64,000 nt of DNA, taken from the NCBI GenBank assembly GCA_965222155.1, contig CBDCTH010000012.1, forward strand, positions 480,001 to 544,000, read 5' to 3'. The stretch's first letter is position 1; every line of letters starts with the position of its first letter. The translations under genes were made by a program, and so were the position numbers. The stretch is from Gammaproteobacteria bacterium (GTDB lineage Bacteria; Pseudomonadota; Gammaproteobacteria; Eutrophobiales; Eutrophobiaceae). The notes beneath the pieces were generated by a model. That model was not told the DNA's origin. It did no database searches and was given only the letters and a program-made list of their open reading frames with translations. Below, in pieces: positions 1 to 52,860 of this stretch.

Positions 1-297
1 CTGGAGCTGTTTCAACAGGACCCAGCCACAACCGGCATCATCATGGTGGGCGAGATAGGCGGCAGCGCCGAAGAGGAAGCGGCAGAGTTTATCGGACAGT
101 ATGCCAATAAACCCGTAGTAGGTTATATTGCTGGCGTTACTGCGCCCCCGGGAAGGCGCATGGGACATGCCGGCGCGATTATTTCAGGCGGCAAAGGGAG
201 TGCGAGCGACAAATTCTCCGCGCTTGATGCCGCCGGCGTAACAACCGTCAAGTCACCTGCCGAACTGGGTGAGGCTATTGCCGCAAAATTAAAGTGA
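1..297 (+). CDS. sucD: Succinyl-CoA synthetase alpha subunit, 5'-partial
   Basis: Frame open from base 1; motifs [12 protein letters not shown] and GRRMGHAGA (phospho-His loop). Confidence 0.96.
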
Positions 298-2153
298 ACA
301 GAGTCGCTATTGCCCAGGTTGATTTGTGTGTCGGCGATATAGACGGTAATACGGAACTGGTTCTTGAATACATTTCCAGGGCCAGAGGCAGCGCCGGCGC
401 AGATACGATAATATTCCCCGAGTTGGCCCTGACCGGTTATCCGCCGGAAGACCTGTTATTGCGTCCTCATTTCCACGTACAGGTGGAACAGGCCTTGCAA
501 CGAGTGATGCACGGGTCGCAGGGCATAAGCGTTGTCCTCGGCTATCCGACGCAAAAAGAGACGCGCCTGTATAACTCCTGCAGTCTGGTCAGGGACGGGG
601 AGGTCGTCACAACCTACCATAAAAGAAACTTGCCCAATTACGGTGTTTTCGACGAAAAACGTTATTTTACCGAGGGAGAAGAGCTGAATCTGGTTGAAAC
701 CCCGGACCTCAAGGTTGCGCTGAGTGTATGTGAGGACCTGTGGACCGAAGACCACGTCAGCGAAGCAGCCGGCGCCGGGGCGGAGCTGCTGATCAATATC
801 AACGCCTCTCCCTACCACACAGACAAATCCAGTGTCAGGGAGGTACTGCTGAAGCGCCGCGCCGTTGACCATAATATAGCGATCATCTACGTCAACCTGG
901 TGGGCGGCCAGGATGAACTGATATTCGACGGTGGTTCCCTGGTCATAGATTGCCGTGGTGAATTCGTCTTCAAAGCCCCGCAGTTTGAACAGGGTCTGTA
1001 CCTGGTGGAGCTGGGACGGGCGGCGGCAGGCGCTATTACCGTGGAAGCCAAATCAGTGCAGTGTCCGCCCCTGGACTTTACCGAGAGCGTCTACCGGGCA
1101 CTGGTGCTTGGCGTCAAGGATTACGTGTTGAAAAACGGTTTCAAGGGTGCGGTTATCGGTTTGTCGGGCGGTATCGACTCGGCGCTGACCCTGGCTATCG
1201 CCGTGGATGCGCTCGGTCCGGAAAACGTTGAAGTGCTGCTGCTGCCGTCCCGTTACACTGCCGCCATGAGTGTCGAAGACGCACAGGAAATGGCCGATAA
1301 GCTGGGTGTCTCCTGCCATACGGTGAGTATTGAAAAACCTTTTTCGGCGTTCGCGGAAATTTTGTCACCGGTTTTCAAGGATCTCCCTATGGCCCGGACT
1401 TCTCACCAGGTGATGCGCCCTTGCTTGTCTTTTTTGCGCCAGTGGGCACGTGTTCCCTCAACCATAGCTACGGCTATGCGTTCGTTCGCAGGCGCCCACT
1501 GGCGCAAAAAATCCGGCGCATTCATTGCGCCCATCCCTGGGCGCAACCCTACGGGCGGCTGTCGCCGTGCAAATCGGCTATCCTGCCGATTTGTCATCGC
1601 ATCACTTGGTGAGAAATCCGAGCAGGACACGACCGAAGAAAATATCCAGGCCCGCTGCCGCGGATTGTTGCTTATGGCCGTATCCAACAAAACCGGCAAG
1701 CTGGTTTTGACGACGGGCAATAAAAGTGAAATGGCGGTGGGTTACGCAACCTTGTACGGGGATATGGCCGGTGGGTTTGCGCCGCTCAAAGACGTGCCGA
1801 AAATCCTGGTCTACAAACTGTCCCGCTGGCGCAACCGGACCGGGGAAATCATTCCGCAACGGATCATCGACCGCCCGCCCAGTGCGGAGTTACGTTTTGA
1901 CCAGAAAGACGAAGACTCCCTGCCTGGCTATGACGTGCTGGATCCGATACTGGAAAAATACATTGAGATGGACCACACTCCGGGTGAGATTATCGAAGCA
2001 GGCTATGACCGGGATACTGTCTACCAGGTGATCAGGCTGGTGGATAAAAATGAATACAAGCGCCGCCAGGCCGCTCCCGGCGTCAGGATCACAGAACGCG
2101 CCTTCGGTCGCGACCGGCGTTATCCTATTACTTCCCGCTACCAGGAAATATAA
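294..2153 (+). CDS. nadE: Glutamine-dependent NAD+ synthetase with a 78-aa in-frame insertion
   Basis: Nitrilase-type N-domain ([28 protein letters not shown]), SGGIDS, TGNKSE..VGY.TLYGD; element inserted at 1393-1622. Confidence 0.96.
1393..1622. mobile_element. Palindromic MITE, copy 1, in frame within nadE
   Basis: TIRs CCCGGACTTCTCACCAGGTGATGCG / CGCATCACTTGGTGAGAAATCCGAG; degenerate 4-bp flanks ATGG/CAGG; homologous to 17535-17773, 25311-25644 and 37803-37946. Confidence 0.9.
1521..1595. repeat. 75-nt multi-hairpin element nested in MITE copy 1
   Basis: Near-identical 75-nt copy at 25417-25491, at a different position within the host MITE. Confidence 0.85.
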
Positions 2154-11205: not shown

Positions 11206-11310
11206 CAAAGGGGGAGTGCTTGAACAGGTTACTGCCTCCGCTTATCATTGCAGACCGCGCAAATACAGGTTTACGTGGTAAACATAGTAACGATAGGAAT
11301 TATGAATTAT

Positions 11311-11440
11311 GGGGACACAATACTTAATTATCCCACCGTGAATTCTGCTGAATTAAGTATTGTGTCCCCATAACTTAAATTCTGCTGAATTAAGTATTGT
11401 GTCCCCATAACTCCCCGGCACTCCCCCCATAACTCCCTCC
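11311..11440. repeat. GGGGACAC...GTGTCCCC palindrome with tandemly duplicated right arm
   Basis: GGGGACACAATACTTAATT / AATTAAGTATTGTGTCCCC; right arm present twice. Confidence 0.8.
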
Positions 11441-11444
11441 CCGT

Positions 11445-11685
11445 CGTCATGCCGGGCCTGACCCCCCGTCCGTCATGCCGGGCTTGACCCCCCCTCCGTC
11501 ATGCCGGGCTTGACCCCCCGTCCGTCATTCCGGGCTTGACCCGGAATCCAGTGAAACAAGGTGTCGCCTCCGGCGACACGTTATCTGACTGGATTTCCGT
11601 CCTTTGGTTCGTCAACGGCACATCCCCCTGCTTACAGCATGCAGGGGCAGGCTATGTGCCACTACTCGGCATTCGCCGGAATGAC
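11445..11685. repeat. Four 26-nt tandem units leading into a GTCATTCC-family element
   Basis: CGTCATGCCGGGCTTGACCCCCC units at 11445, 11471, 11497 and 11523; closed by CGGAATGAC at about 11685. Confidence 0.8.
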
Positions 11686-12202: not shown

Positions 12203-12305
12203 CGTAAATCCAGGACACCCATCGTAAATCCAGGACACCCATAAATTCACTTTGCAGAAAGAAACGGGCCGGGTCTCAACCTGCCTAATTTTATGGGTGT
12301 CCTGA
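12203..12305. repeat. CAGGACACCCATAAA...TTTATGGGTGTCCTG REPIN-like element with a duplicated left end
   Basis: Same family as 45556-45628 and 45851-45925, opposite orientation. Confidence 0.8.
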
Positions 12306-12396
12306 ATTTGGCTTCCCTGAATTTGGCTTCCCTGAATTTGGCTTCCTGAATTTGGCTTCCTGAATTTGGCTTCTGAATTTGGCTTCTGAATTTGGG
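12301..12396. repeat. Tandem ladder of TGAATTTGGCTT(C)n units
   Basis: Seven units with spacings 15,15,14,14,13,13 nt. Confidence 0.9.
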
Positions 12397-12563
12397 CTGA
12401 CTCCATTTTCTCCAGATATAAATCTGTCCCCTTTTCTTAATAAAGTTTTTCAACTTCATAATATAAAAAGACTTATATCTCAAATATTCACGGTTTGTTC
12501 CTTTCTCACCGGCTAAGTATTTGTAAGACGGGCAAATTTTTGCCGGAAAGTTACAAGATTTGC

Positions 12564-16040: not shown

Positions 16041-17563
16041 TGATGTTGCCCGTAAACAAGCGTCAAAGCGGTTTTCCATTGCAGATGCTGCTGGAAGGTC
16101 TGACTGATGCACGGGTCGAGGGTGATATTTCAGTTCAGGGGATCAGTTCGGACAGCCGTGAAATTCGCCCGGGTGATTTGTTTCTCGCCTGCCGGGGACC
16201 GAACACCCGCGGCAGCCTGTTCATCAACGCTGCGCTCAAGGCAGGGGCCGCGGCAGTGGTCGTGGATGAGGAATTGCTGTCCGACCTGGACCGGTGCCGG
16301 CCGGCGCTGTTTCCGGTAGCGGATTTACGCGCTAAACTGGGATTGATTGCCGGGCGGTTTTACGGCGATCCCACAAAACAGCTGCACCTCACCGGCGTTA
16401 CGGGAACCAACGGCAAAACCAGCGTAAGCTGGTGGCTGGCGAAACTCCATTCACTGCTGACGCGGACACAGGCGGGTTTGATCGGCACCCTGGGATACGG
16501 GTGTTATCCGCGCCTGCAATCCGGGCTTAATACAACCCCGGGCGCAGTCAGTTTACAGCGCTTGTTTGCCGGCTTCGTCGAAGCGGGCGCGGACACGGCG
16601 TTCATGGAGGTATCATCCCATGCCCTGGATCAGGGGCGCGTCAGCGAAGTCGATTTCGACGTTGCCGTGTTCACCAACCTGAGCCGGGACCATCTGGATT
16701 ACCACCGGAGCCTGGACGAGTACTTCCGCGCCAAACAAAAACTGTTTGCATTCAATTCATTGCGCGCTGCCGTGGTGAACTGTGATGACCCATACGGGCA
16801 GGCAATACTACGCGCTCTGCCGGCGGGCATAGAGGCGATCAGTTACGGTTTATCAGGCAATCCGCAACAGTCGGTTCAGCCTCTCGTCAGGGCAAGGCCG
16901 GCGCCGGGCGCTGAGCTTATCCTGGATATTACCAGTCCCTGGGGCAACGGCCAGGTGCGGCCGGGGGTAACGGGAAAATTCAACGTCGGCAATATACTGG
17001 CGCTGGTTTCGGTGCTGGGGCTGGCAGGGTTCCCGCTTGAGCGCATCCTGGAAAAGCTGGACAACATCGGCCCGGTACCGGGTCGTATGGAGAGTTTCAG
17101 ACGCGCAGACGGCGCCCAAATCGTCGTTGATTACGCCCATACCCCCGCCGCCCTGGAACAGGCCCTGGCAAGTCTGCGGGAATGTTGTGCGGGGCGGTTG
17201 ATCTGTGTTTTCGGCTGTGGCGGCGAACGGGATAAGGAAAAGCGGCCGCAGATGGGAGAACTGGCGGAACAACTTTCCGACGAAGTAATTTTAACTGATG
17301 ACAATCCGAGGTCTGAAGCCGGCGATGACATTATCGAGGCCATCCTCTCCGGCATAACCGCCAAGGGTTGCGCCACTATAGAGCGCAACCGTTCCAGGGC
17401 CATCGAGCTGGCGCTGGGGCGGGCCGGGCCCGCTGACGTGGTATTGATTGCCGGCAAGGGACATGAAACCTGTCAGGAAATTGCAGGTACGCGCTATCCC
17501 TTCAACGATCTGCAGCAGGTCAGGCAGTTGCTAGCCCGGAATTCTCACCAGGTGATGCGATGA
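16037..17563 (+). CDS. murE: UDP-MurNAc-Ala-Glu:mDAP ligase; C-terminus derived from a MITE
   Basis: GVTGTNGKT, MEVSSH, DYAHTP, DNPR, AGKGHE. Confidence 0.96.
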   Translation: MMMLPVNKRQSGFPLQMLLEGLTDARVEGDISVQGISSDSREIRPGDLFLACRGPNTRGSLFINAALKAGAAAVVVDEELLSDLDRCRPALFPVADLRAKLGLIAGRFYGDPTKQLHLTGVTGTNGKTSVSWWLAKLHSLLTRTQAGLIGTLGYGCYPRLQSGLNTTPGAVSLQRLFAGFVEAGADTAFMEVSSHALDQGRVSEVDFDVAVFTNLSRDHLDYHRSLDEYFRAKQKLFAFNSLRAAVVNCDDPYGQAILRALPAGIEAISYGLSGNPQQSVQPLVRARPAPGAELILDITSPWGNGQVRPGVTGKFNVGNILALVSVLGLAGFPLERILEKLDNIGPVPGRMESFRRADGAQIVVDYAHTPAALEQALASLRECCAGRLICVFGCGGERDKEKRPQMGELAEQLSDEVILTDDNPRSEAGDDIIEAILSGITAKGCATIERNRSRAIELALGRAGPADVVLIAGKGHETCQEIAGTRYPFNDLQQVRQLLARNSHQVMR

Positions 17564-17773
17564 TCGCGCCGGATTTTTGCCGCCAGCGGGTGCCTGCGAC
17601 CGAAAGCATAGCCGTAGTTCTGGTTGAGGGAGCACGTGCCCGCTGGCGGCAAAAAGACAAGCGAGGGCGCATCAAGCGTAGTTTATTCAGATGATATTGT
17701 AGACATGTTACCGCAACCTATTGACAGCAAACAAGTATTAGATGGCAACAAGCGGCTTGGTGAGAATTCCGGG
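17535..17773. mobile_element. Palindromic MITE, copy 2, in the 3' end of murE (reverse orientation to copy 1)
   Basis: TIRs CCCGGAATTCTCACCA / TGGTGAGAATTCCGGG; flanks CTAG/CTGG. Confidence 0.9.
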
Positions 17774-23912: not shown

Positions 23913-25335
23913 TGGGCACAACATGGGTCGCGTCAGGCATATCCATTTTGTCGGTATTGGCGGAGCCGGCATGAGCGGGATAGCCGAAGTCCTGCATAAC
24001 CTGGGCTATACGGTGTCAGGCACGGACCTGAAGCAGGGCAACAGCACGGAACGGCTTGCAGACATGGGTGTCGAGGTGCGCTTTGAACACGAAGCGGAAT
24101 GTGTGAACGGCAGCGACGTGGTTGTTTATTCAAGCGCGATCCCGGCAGACAATCCGGAGTTGTCGGCAGCGCGCCGACAACGCATACCGATCATCCCGCG
24201 GGCCGAGATGCTGTCTGAACTGATGCGTTTCAGGGAAGGGGTTGCGGTAGCCGGCACCCACGGCAAGACGACAACAACCAGCCTGATCGCCAGCCTGCTG
24301 GCGGAAGGCATGTTCGACCCGACCTATATCATCGGTGGGCGCTTGAACATGACAGGTTCCCATGCCCGGCTCGGCAAGGGGAAATACATGGTAGCCGAGG
24401 CGGATGAGAGTGATGCCTCCTTCCTGCACCTGCAACCTGTCTATGCCGTGCTGACGAATATCGATGCCGATCACCTGGAGTACTGTGGCGGCAGTTACCA
24501 GGCGTTGCAAAACAACTTTATAGACTTCCTGCACTGCCTGCCGTTTTACGGTCTGGTGGTCATCTGCAGCGATGACGCCGGTATCCGCGGTATCGTCACC
24601 CGCATAAACCGGCCTTATGTCACCTATGGGATTGATTCCGACGCGGATTACCGGGCGGAAGCGATTCAATATGACGGGCCGACAACCCGGTTCAACATAG
24701 TGCGCCGCAACCAGGATGACGCGTTCCGGGTAACGCTGAACCTGCCGGGCCGGCATAACGTCCTGAATGCCCTGGCGGCAGTGGCGCTGGCTATCGAACT
24801 GGGCGTGTCGGAACAGGCAATAAGCGCCGGATTGGCAAACTTCCAGGGCATAGACCGCAGGAGTTCGATCCTGGGTGATATCCATATCGACGGCAAGACC
24901 GTATTGCTTATCGACGATTATGCCCACCACCCCAGTGAAATAGCCGCTATCAATAATGCTCTTGCTGACGGTTGGCCCGGCAGGAAAGTGGTCGTCGTGT
25001 TTCAACCGCACCGGTATACCCGTACCCGGGATCTTTTCGAAGAGTTCTGCCAGATATTGTCGGAACTCGACAGCTTGATTCTGCTTGACGTCTATCCCGC
25101 CGGGGAGCGCCCCATCAAGGGCGCCGACAGCCGTTCCCTGAGCCGGGCGCTCAGGGTCAGGGGCAAGGTGGAGCCTATTCTCGTCAACAATGAAACGGAA
25201 TTGCTGGCCGTGCTGGAAAACCTTACGGCGCAGAACGATATCCTGTTGCTGCTGGGCGCAGGAGATATCAGCGCCCTCGGTAGCCGGTTGCTCGACGTGT
25301 ACGGCACCAGCCCACATTTCTCACCAGATCGCTAG
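23905..25335 (+). CDS. murC: UDP-MurNAc:L-Ala ligase; C-terminus derived from a MITE
   Basis: GIGGAGMSG, GTHGKTTT, EADESD, DDYAHHP, FQPHRYTR. Confidence 0.96.
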   Translation: MPDGHNMGRVRHIHFVGIGGAGMSGIAEVLHNLGYTVSGTDLKQGNSTERLADMGVEVRFEHEAECVNGSDVVVYSSAIPADNPELSAARRQRIPIIPRAEMLSELMRFREGVAVAGTHGKTTTTSLIASLLAEGMFDPTYIIGGRLNMTGSHARLGKGKYMVAEADESDASFLHLQPVYAVLTNIDADHLEYCGGSYQALQNNFIDFLHCLPFYGLVVICSDDAGIRGIVTRINRPYVTYGIDSDADYRAEAIQYDGPTTRFNIVRRNQDDAFRVTLNLPGRHNVLNALAAVALAIELGVSEQAISAGLANFQGIDRRSSILGDIHIDGKTVLLIDDYAHHPSEIAAINNALADGWPGRKVVVVFQPHRYTRTRDLFEEFCQILSELDSLILLDVYPAGERPIKGADSRSLSRALRVRGKVEPILVNNETELLAVLENLTAQNDILLLLGAGDISALGSRLLDVYGTSPHFSPDR

Positions 25336-25644
25336 TTGCCCTCCGATAATTTATTGCTATCAATACATAATGATAATTCACTTACTATATAGACATTACA
25401 GACTGCGCTTGATGCGTTCATTGCATCCATCCCTGGACGCAACCCTACGGGCGGCTATCGCCGTGCAAATCGGCTGTCCTGCCGATTTGTCTCGCTTGTC
25501 TTTTTCCCGCCAACGGGTACGTGCTCCCTCAACCAGAGTCCCAGCTATGCTTTCGGTCCCCGTATCAAGTACGGGGCAGACTCCGGCACCCGTTGGTGGG
25601 AAAAATCCTGCGCGATCATCGCATCACCTGATGAGAAATGCGGG
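25311..25644. mobile_element. Palindromic MITE, copy 3, at the murC/murB junction with two nested inserts
   Basis: TIRs CCCACATTTCTCACCAG / CTGATGAGAAATGCGGG; nested inserts at 25417-25491 and 25558-25582. Confidence 0.88.
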
Positions 25645-25660
25645 CTTCGGGGCGATTGAG

Positions 25661-37759: not shown

Positions 37760-37802
37760 GGCTTTTGCCACAGGGGACGCGGAGAGCACAGAGTATTATC
37801 AA

Positions 37803-37946
37803 TCCGGATTTCTCAGGTCTAATGTTGCCATCGGATAGATGTCCGCTGTTACTGAGTTATGGTCATCTGCTCACCATGTCACCATTACAGACTTCACTTG
37901 ATGCGCCCTCGCTGGTCTTTTCGCCGCCAACGGGCACATGCTCCCT
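37803..37946. mobile_element. Palindromic MITE, copy 4, truncated at the island boundary
   Basis: TCCGGATTTCTCA end, 67-nt region, CTTGATGCGCCCTCGC...GGGCACATGCTCCCT, then similarity ends abruptly. Confidence 0.75.
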
Positions 37947-38206: not shown

Positions 38207-38436
38207 GGAAAATACAGCTTTTTCAGTGAGTTAGAACACTTTTCCGGCCCCACTGCGCGGGCCGGCAACAGCGTATTTCAGCATACAAGCAGGGCAGCCC
38301 CTCACTGCTTGATGCAGGACTCCATCAGTACGGCGACGTACTGCGGCCTCCCCATGACTTCCCGCCGTCAACCCGGCACACAGCGGGTGTCTTTGCCTTG
38401 CCTAACGCGTCACTTGATAACCATGAAGAAAGCAAC

Positions 38437-52080: not shown

Positions 52081-52860
52081 TCACTGCATCCATATCATAC
52101 TTGCCATACGTCCTGTCACGCCGTCCCTGCGATAGGAATAGAACAGGTCTTTTCTACTGTAGGTACACAGGTTACATCCATAAACGTCTTCGACACCTTG
52201 TTGCAGCAGCTTGATTTTCACCAGTTGTCCGAGGTCCAGGAACCAGTGATTCGCACGACTCTGACGGATTGCCTGAGAAAACGGGACAGATTTATTTTCA
52301 CTCTGTTCCGACCGGGGACAAATTTCAAATCTGTCCCCGGTCCCCAGGCAAGCAGTGATAACGTCAGCCCCGACTTCGTAATTTTCCTGACTGATATACG
52401 GCCCCAGCCAGGCCAGTAATTCCCGGGGATTGGCGTTAAACATGGCCAGGGCGCTTTTTATGATGCCTTGACACAGGCCGCGCCAACCGATGTGGATAGC
52501 GGCAATTTCAGTGCCGGATTTATTACAGAGCAACAGGGGAATACAGTCAGCCGTTAAAACTGCACATACCCTGTCGGTTGCGCGAGTATAAGCGCCGTCC
52601 GCGTCTGCGTTTTCGTCCGGATTGACTTCAACTACCCTGCTGCCGTGGCGCTGTTTCAACCAGTTCGGCGCGGCCGGCAGGCTTAATTGACTTTGCAACC
52701 GTAAGCGGTTCTCTGCAACGGCCTGCAGGTCATCGCCTACATGACCGGCAAGGTTAAAGCTGTCGAACGGGGGGCGACTGACACCGACCAGCCGCGTTGT
52801 CGTTCCGGCGTGAATGTGCCCGGGCGCAGGCCAGTCTGCGGCCATCCATATCTCATTCAT
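52081..52860 (-). CDS. pgeF: Peptidoglycan editing factor PgeF/YfiH with an in-frame palindromic insert
   Basis: NLA.HVGD, LTADC.P, H.GWRG, SYRR....GRMAS. Confidence 0.93.
   Translation of the reverse strand: MNEIWMAADWPAPGHIHAGTTTRLVGVSRPPFDSFNLAGHVGDDLQAVAENRLRLQSQLSLPAAPNWLKQRHGSRVVEVNPDENADADGAYTRATDRVCAVLTADCIPLLLCNKSGTEIAAIHIGWRGLCQGIIKSALAMFNANPRELLAWLGPYISQENYEVGADVITACLGTGDRFEICPRSEQSENKSVPFSQAIRQSRANHWFLDLGQLVKIKLLQQGVEDVYGCNLCTYSRKDLFYSYRRDGVTGRMASMIWMQ
52278..52345. repeat. GGGGACAGA-family palindromes in frame within pgeF
   Basis: GGGACAGATTTATTTTC plus GGGGACAAATTTCAAATCTGTCCCC; encodes GDRFEICP...ENKSVPF. Confidence 0.82.

Follow-up and report, generated by a model that had tools for sequence, protein, structure and literature searches.

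In the 64,000-nt stretch of DNA analysed here, referred to as the window, the gene for glutamine-dependent NAD+ synthetase (nadE, 294..2153, plus strand) is open and carries a 78-residue insert after residue 366, which raises the question of what was inserted, in how many steps, and whether the smallest repeat involved moves on its own. Within nadE lies a MITE copy (copy 1, 1392..1623, plus strand) whose ends resemble the IS1380 ends of this genome (TAGCCCG.AT.TCTCAC) when compared within the genome; its sites A (1418-1420) and B (1453-1455) are both empty, and its site C is filled by a four-hairpin element. The initial annotation had described this element as a 75-mer at 1521-1595, with a further copy at 25417-25491, that had entered the MITE at two different sites with a net gain of 72 nt, and each of these points held. 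Both copies are present, 93% identical and composed of four hairpins, one at site C of MITE copy 1 and the other at site A of MITE copy 3 (25310..25645, plus strand, in the murC/murB interval), where site C (25615-25617) is empty. Every site is empty in MITE copy 2 (17531..17680, minus strand), as are A and B in MITE copy 4 (37801..37946, plus strand), which has lost its right part. We also observed that MITE copies 3 (25310-25335) and 2 (17531-17563) overlap the ends of murC and murE, respectively, where they appear to provide the last codons and stops.

The element in nadE belongs to subfamily a and spans 1521..1594 on the plus strand (covariance model, 80.6 bits), with base 1595 being the retained target base; its 74-nt donor would read YT + C-ATTG...TTTG + T. 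The second copy likewise spans 25417..25490 on the plus strand (76.6 bits) and is followed by a target base at 25491. Read on the minus strand, H1 (1525..1546) has the loop CAGGGATG, a GGA loop, H2 (1547..1555) is a cGNAg triloop, H3 (1556..1567) has a cG..Ag loop, and H4 (CAAAT...ATTTG, 1570..1593) again presents a GGA loop and sets the precise end of the element. Folded as DNA, both window copies form the four hairpins (z = -6.8 and -5.5), and for each copy 0 of 200 shuffles folded as well. The hairpins had been described as kept through a compensatory change, and they are kept; the change in H1 of the second copy is truly compensatory at a single pair (C-G to T-A) and also includes an A.C mismatch. 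Other short tandem or palindromic repeat families lie in the window at 12288-12408, 11436-11557, 45549-46009 and 52256-52356, among them a 14-15 bp array, GTCATGCCGGGCTTGA and GGGGACAGATTT...AAATCTGTCCCC. In addition, 171-bp tandem repeats and glycine-rich nonapeptide-like repeats occupy 39550-41032, in a 981-aa ORF (38398-41343) that probably encodes a secreted calcium-binding repeat protein.

Orthologues of nadE align to residues 1-365/366 and 444/445-619 and have no insert at this site, a short stretch right before the conserved D-x-TEEN motif of the synthetase domain. A strong nadE match was present in 21 of 22 same-genus genomes (G011 gave weak hits only), a few of them split over contigs, and 13 of the junctions were read directly. 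The insert is 78 codons long as first described, but its reading as two successive events proved weak, since a MITE copy at C12:215871 carries an identical element core (75/75) and the same GCA flank, so that one insertion of a composite is possible. Judged from these comparisons, it seems fairly probable that a ready-made composite of MITE and element inserted once in nadE, and this is no less likely than two steps. Among full-length MITEs, the one closest to the nadE copy is empty and reads AAC at site C. No read contig joined the nadE-specific flanks without the element, a result without weight since the contigs break at the repeat, and in the RNA run we saw no evidence of transcription.

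Around 70 copies of the 75-mer occur in this genome. Among the 68 end-paired copies, MITE sites A, B and C account for 11, 23 and 13; 7 are A/B or B/C chimeras, 9 lie in four other targets, and 5 have at least one unclassified flank, with MITE flanks on both sides in 57 of the 68. Outside the MITE, the four targets comprise a different palindromic repeat, a further repeated element that is entered at its 5' end, and two transposase-like genes which, from reading their translations, we take to be IS5-like and ISAs1-like. The genome-wide tabulation of targets thus found the 75-mer neither confined to this MITE nor always at one position, and the element has at least seven target classes here. 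Relatives contain MITEs with A and B both filled, 107 bp apart, and near-identical pairs of empty and filled alleles exist elsewhere; these observations uphold the early suggestion of independent mobility and leave us in little doubt that the element is independently mobile. Copies that lie in a MITE or IS are also carried along when that host spreads, and patterns in this genome suggest that the chimeras arise by recombination between two element copies in one MITE. The element is present in 19 of 22 same-genus genomes. A plasmid BLAST with the 75-mer returned no match, and Rfam 15 models gave only sub-threshold MIR1222 matches, on the MITE.

We then compared empty and filled sites to define the junctions. 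The empty triplets are CCC at site A (68 of 77 matches), CTC or CTT at B, ATC at C (78 of 87 matches), CTT at D, and TTC at E, F and G. Filled left ends are TTC or CTC whatever the empty triplet (at A, TTC in all 15; at C, TTC in 9 and CTC in 4), site G being filled with CTC where its empties have TTC. The last base of the element matches the target, being T at site D and G or C for subfamily b; one of the tables behind this covers 42 copies. In near-identical allele pairs from metagenomes, TTC becomes TTG...TC and CTC becomes TTC...TC; at the latter site an 88%-identical allele already has the TTC form. Contigs of two read runs show 74-nt skips with two letters between, including at the 1521..1594 element. 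Because the last base follows the target, and the paired alleles and skips agree, 74 nt replace 2 nt, and the initial reading of a 75-for-3 replacement is corrected to 74-for-2 with its net gain of 72 nt intact. This gain is modal, not universal. Of 81 independent targets, 80 have C or G directly after the element and 45 have TT as the left pair; at the right end, T follows TTTG in 75 of 76 copies. The target is a weak 5'-YT^S site, to whose target base the right end (TTTGT) joins exactly, and 5' of the cut a donor-type YT often takes the place of the two target bases. The ends, YTS and TTTGT, form no terminal inverted repeats and share at most a formal 1-bp T overlap. Alternatively, some sites may have been struck only where a rare TT variant was present, the filled variant then multiplying with the MITE, an explanation that fails for site G and for the CTC variants at C.

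One exact end beside overwritten bases is also what copying without an enzyme would leave. Under double template switching, a nascent strand ending at S would jump to a donor copy, held by one base pair with the donor flank, copy 74 nt and return by 2-5 nt of microhomology, overwriting two bases. Such a process accounts for a right end that is exact and a left end that varies, for the overwriting of bases and for the ±1 variants seen at tRNA loci. The third base of the element equals the target base in 48% of cases against 37% expected by chance (p = 0.002), and several targets (TTCAT, TTGAC) look like the left end of the element itself. However, longer microhomology is not enriched (p = 0.18 at +2, 0.31 at +3), and template switching alone leaves unexplained the four strongly covarying hairpins with fixed ends found class-wide. 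We consider it rather unlikely.

The covariance model yields 120 matches in this genome. A sister subfamily, b, starts TTGATG and occupies three further MITE sites on both strands; a subfamily-b copy lies in frame in a gene whose product resembles formylmethanofuran dehydrogenase subunit B, at a score below the cut-off of that protein family, and whose orthologues are empty. In genome G014, the gene orthologous to that at C1:47229-48536 reads TTGATG where the empty triplet would stand; this adds 3 nt in frame and resembles the scar of a deletion, made up of the element's left end. The element is itself a target: a relative of about 84 nt was found inserted in the 75-mer, at the foot of H4 on the other strand, in keeping with the TT^G rule (C4:609244-609329, C12:1801106-1801189 and others). 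Some 27 copies, for example C12:215871, C12:646635 and C4:593754, also carry a 27-57 nt hairpin insert of the CCCCTGC...CAGGCT type at the tip of H1, giving lengths of 102-105 and 131-132 and a third level of nesting.

The proposal that the element targets structured DNA found weak support. Reconstructed targets folded at z < -2 in 25% of 77 cases against 12% of 154 local controls (p = 0.006), but several targets are plain coding sequence, and strict loop targeting is not supported, mean pairing around the insertion site being flat. MITE sites A and C lie opposite each other in one internal loop; other sites lie in stems or coding DNA, two subfamily-b sites falling within a paired stem of the MITE. 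Preservation of reading frame, originally taken as a feature of the insertions, does not extend to a general rule: the net gain is 65-77 nt at tRNA loci, and multiples of three occur in 10 of 23 and 36 of 76 copies. In-frame copies within genes are best explained as having been kept by selection.

We next considered how far the family extends. Of 101 Gammaproteobacteria genomes, 49 gave a match to the covariance model, with this genome and the unpublished G063 included in the count, and a scan of a sequence collection matched at least 116 stretches, mostly from Gammaproteobacteria, of which 80 were fetched. The covariation score is 0.431 against 0.137 for shuffled and at most 0.12 for slid alignments, with stems H1 and H4 covarying strongly. 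The relatives interrupting tRNA T-loops that the initial annotation had mentioned do exist: a pattern joining the right half of the element to a T-arm remnant occurred in 38 of 301 class genomes with 0 control hits, and an intact tRNA lay nearby at 27 of 30 fetched T-arm loci, the left flank copying its T-arm and acceptor side in 23 of 33 matches. The opposite-orientation pattern occurred in 4 of 301 genomes, at most one of its 5 matches reading as a sense T-arm. The T-arm pattern is absent from this genome. Many loci with an interrupted T-loop fragment carry, behind that fragment, a second conserved hairpin arm (GGTTCTCAYCC or GGTTCGAACC), giving a T-arm palindrome, and units repeat in tandem at 140-175 bp. 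By eye, the element flanks at four loci look antisense to tRNA anticodon-arm fragments (Ser, Leu) and not to T-loops. Phage copies (8 loci) sit at apparent overlapping stop/start gene junctions (CAT|TTC...TCA). A two-gene unit of a small upstream gene and a tyrosine recombinase (PF00589) is widespread in metagenomes, and near-identical copies of it have collected three or four independent element insertions.

Two further settings lie in Escherichia coli. At one locus, an insert of 71 nt, with a covariance-model score of 62.5 bits, divides a complete 127-bp ERIC that has both ERIC primer sites; the break, at TT^CAC, falls within the site for primer ERIC1R. Similar ERIC-borne copies occur in Serratia, Yersinia and Symbiopectobacterium, and a filled Serratia ERIC was covered over at least 80% of its length in 606 of 5426 E. 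coli genomes. Insertions of about 70 nt within ERIC sequences were reportedly described by Cromie et al. in 1997 and Sharp in 1997, and also by Wilson & Sharp in 2006 and De Gregorio in 2005. Compared by description and not by sequence, the E. coli insert is probably one of these. In E. coli K-12 the model matches only three places, all at 63.4 bits. We checked one of them, which is the rrB interval of rrnB; here the element forms the core of RrB and interrupts a 5S 3' fragment. We take the remaining two to be rrA and rrF.

We next explored which strand carries the conserved features. With R denoting the strand that is minus here, H3 loops of the form cG..Ag occur in 62 of 123 copies on R against 4 on the other strand, 44 of the 62 being triloops. 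Tandem G.A mismatches at the base of H1 number 29 and 27 of 69, and H4 has a GGA loop in 73 of 76 copies. The H2 loop on R reads GAA in 64, GCA in 32, GTA in 16 and GGA in 8 of 123 copies, where conservation is partly forced, because the search patterns prescribed the loops of H1 and H2 and the start of H4; only H3, the mismatches and the H4 loop are therefore unbiased. Wobble pairs pick neither strand, H1 favouring R and H4 the plus strand. According to the part of PMC13037366 available, GNA mini-hairpins have a far higher stability in DNA than in RNA, whereas a GGA loop in RNA is a site for CsrA, so that a DNA and an RNA reading are both tenable. The available part of PMC8144298 describes RrB as a real processed RNA that binds CsrA in vitro in a GGA-dependent manner, with only modest phenotypes. 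Given the GGA loops and these RrB data, in which the same strand acts as RNA, the loop bias may reflect selection on RNA. The csrA gene is present in this genome.

These loops invite the view that the element is mainly a functional CsrA-binding RNA module, carried as a MITE passenger and spread by gene conversion, with true de novo insertions rare and old. Binding of CsrA by RrB through loop GGA in vitro (PMC8144298, in the part available) fits this view, as do the MITE flanks of 57 of 68 copies here and the co-occurrence of the element with csrA (43 of 47 vs 38 of 52, p = 0.02). Yet that association is confounded by genome reduction, and polymorphic insertions in 96-98% identical alleles of single-copy genes point to recent independent landing. 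Orientation in this genome is moreover random, at 17 vs 13 relative to neighbouring genes (intergenic copies between co-oriented genes, on crude gene calls in which many 'ORFs' are MITE-derived). We regard a primarily functional module as highly improbable.

Our tentative preference is for a non-autonomous element of about 74 nt without terminal inverted repeats, belonging to an old class-wide family and moved in trans as folded single-stranded DNA by an HUH-like enzyme. In this model, the R strand would be peeled off as folded single-stranded DNA, and a candidate HUH enzyme (Y1, RAYT-like) would cut and join it in trans at S^A dinucleotides. Landing would occur on single-stranded targets, such as extruded palindromes, the non-template strand of highly transcribed tRNA and rRNA genes, or replication forks, and selection might afterwards retain in-frame genic copies and, in places, CsrA-binding GGA-loop RNAs. 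In favour of this model stand the targets and junctions, the covariation, and the R-strand loops and mismatches described above. RAYT enzymes make strand-specific cuts in folded single-stranded DNA; they cut at CT or CA, and at GA once the guide is altered (PMC8266576, in the part available). This genome has two open Y1 genes, and all nine of the nine genomes with at least 10 copies have a Y1 gene, a post hoc count. Across class genomes, with G063 left out, Y1 presence does not track the element (29 of 47 vs 29 of 52, p = 0.68), and the three Y1 loci of this genome hold no element copy, the two open ones being flanked by other repeats. Best as it is, the HUH model is weakened because no enzyme gene is tied to the element and the fixed GTAG guide of REPs is missing, the H2 loop being variable. 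We know of no HUH peel-and-paste insertion that overwrites target bases, and here two often change. Among the pairs listed in this genome, no long ORF lay between element ends that could mark an autonomous partner; the Y2/IS91 search carries no weight, as none of the control genomes gave a match, and of the 22 viral loci, 8 supplied 10 ORFs for scanning, none of them a mobiliser. The open RAYT-like Y1 genes (C12:2623939-2624262 and 1985766-1986089) are flanked by the repeat families GGGGACACAATACTTAATT and GGGGTCAGGTCGCACAATG, the first of which also occurs in the window at 11304-11413.

An alternative is an RNA intermediate, in which a processed transcript of the element would be put back into DNA by a reverse transcriptase, group II-like or other, that uses a DNA break for priming. 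R is the transcript strand at tRNA T-loops (38 vs 4 of 301 genomes for the two orientations), and RrB is a processed RNA, as noted above from PMC8144298. This genome contains five RT-domain matches. Four RT-domain genes with internal TAG stops (C12:32745, 1282745 and 2849352; C1:17591) each lie about 1 kb from a copy of the transposase-like target E, and an open RT gene lies at C12:1313735. One exact and one variable end are typical of target-primed reverse transcription, which counts in favour of an RNA intermediate. On the other hand, orientation relative to neighbouring genes is unbiased (the 17 vs 13 given above, on crude gene calls), the triloop GNA hairpins favour DNA, and reverse transcriptase presence does not track the element (15 of 47 vs 17 of 52; 4 of 9 high-copy genomes). 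An RNA intermediate therefore seems unlikely to us.

Site-specific recombination of a circular form, by a tyrosine recombinase in an integron-like manner or by an IS110 enzyme with a TC core, would suit subfamily a, which often resembles a duplicated TC or TCAT, and this genome has both tyrosine recombinases and IS110 matches, with an open IS110 gene at C12:447925. Subfamily b and the tRNA copies, however, start TTG at TT^C targets without duplicating TC, which rules out the 'TC duplication' model, and a circle junction would not template the overwritten base. We had also considered as mobiliser an integrase flanked by two inverted element copies, and rejected it: only 5 of 94 relative loci carry a copy, these are ordinary insertions, and empty alleles exist, a result that counts equally against circle recombination. 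We judge the circular route very improbable.

Comparison with known systems places the element beside several of them. It resembles the ERIC insertions in that its E. coli family member is a structured insert of about 70 nt interrupting the 127-bp ERIC, but the host of the window copies is an IS1380-related MITE, and the element also occurs in genes and in tRNA and 5S fragments. With RrA/B/F-type TLRs it shares the four-hairpin core and GGA loops on the transcribed strand, whereas the window copies adjoin no tRNA or rRNA genes and lack the copied 3' end seen in 27 of 30 class loci; the K-12 tRNA-operon TLRs are not matched by the covariance model. PMC8144298 treats RrA, RrB and RrF as RNA genes and, in the part available, mentions ERIC 0 times. 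REP/REPIN-RAYT systems, as far as the available part of PMC8266576 describes them, are similarly small and without terminal inverted repeats, with strand-specific folds, purine mismatches and dinucleotide-level cut-site specificity; unlike them, the element lacks the invariant GTAG, has four hairpins, overwrites target bases and, at the Y1 loci of this genome, flanks no transposase gene. Rickettsia palindromic elements, compared by description only and from part of PMC2229807, likewise insert in frame in conserved proteins and in RNA genes, but are about 105-146 bp with terminal inverted repeats, which the element lacks. It also differs from a TIR-type MITE in having neither terminal inverted repeats nor a target-site duplication, and from IS110- or integron-type circles in having no duplicated core dinucleotide (TTG...TC at TT^C targets). 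PATEs of the IS200/IS605 family have a fixed tetra- or pentanucleotide target and lose no target bases, whereas the element's flanks share only YT^S.

The element is real and independently mobile, and its family is known in fragments and not as one class in the literature searched; that search, which placed most subscription papers outside its scope, found none that brings ERIC inserts, TLRs and RrB together in a single mobile family. The finding joins three oddities that had been reported apart: insertions in ERIC, tRNA-linked repeats (TLRs) and, from the rrnB terminator region, the RNAs RrA/B/F; that region is widely used in cloning plasmids (PMC8144298, in the part available). We propose, with reserve, that ERIC insertions, T-loop-splitting tRNA repeats, the rrnB T1-T2 RNA RrB and the nested 72-nt inserts could be one class of mobile DNA of about 74 nt, moving as folded single-stranded DNA through an unrecognised enzyme under a '74-for-2' rule in about half of the sampled Gammaproteobacteria. 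If this is true, RrB would be a domesticated mobile element, and CsrA sites would have been seeded through genomes by the element. The junction rule, together with polymorphic empty and filled alleles, makes the movement of bacterial mini-repeats without terminal inverted repeats directly testable in E. coli, and the insertions show a route by which essential enzymes acquire loops of 24-78 residues.
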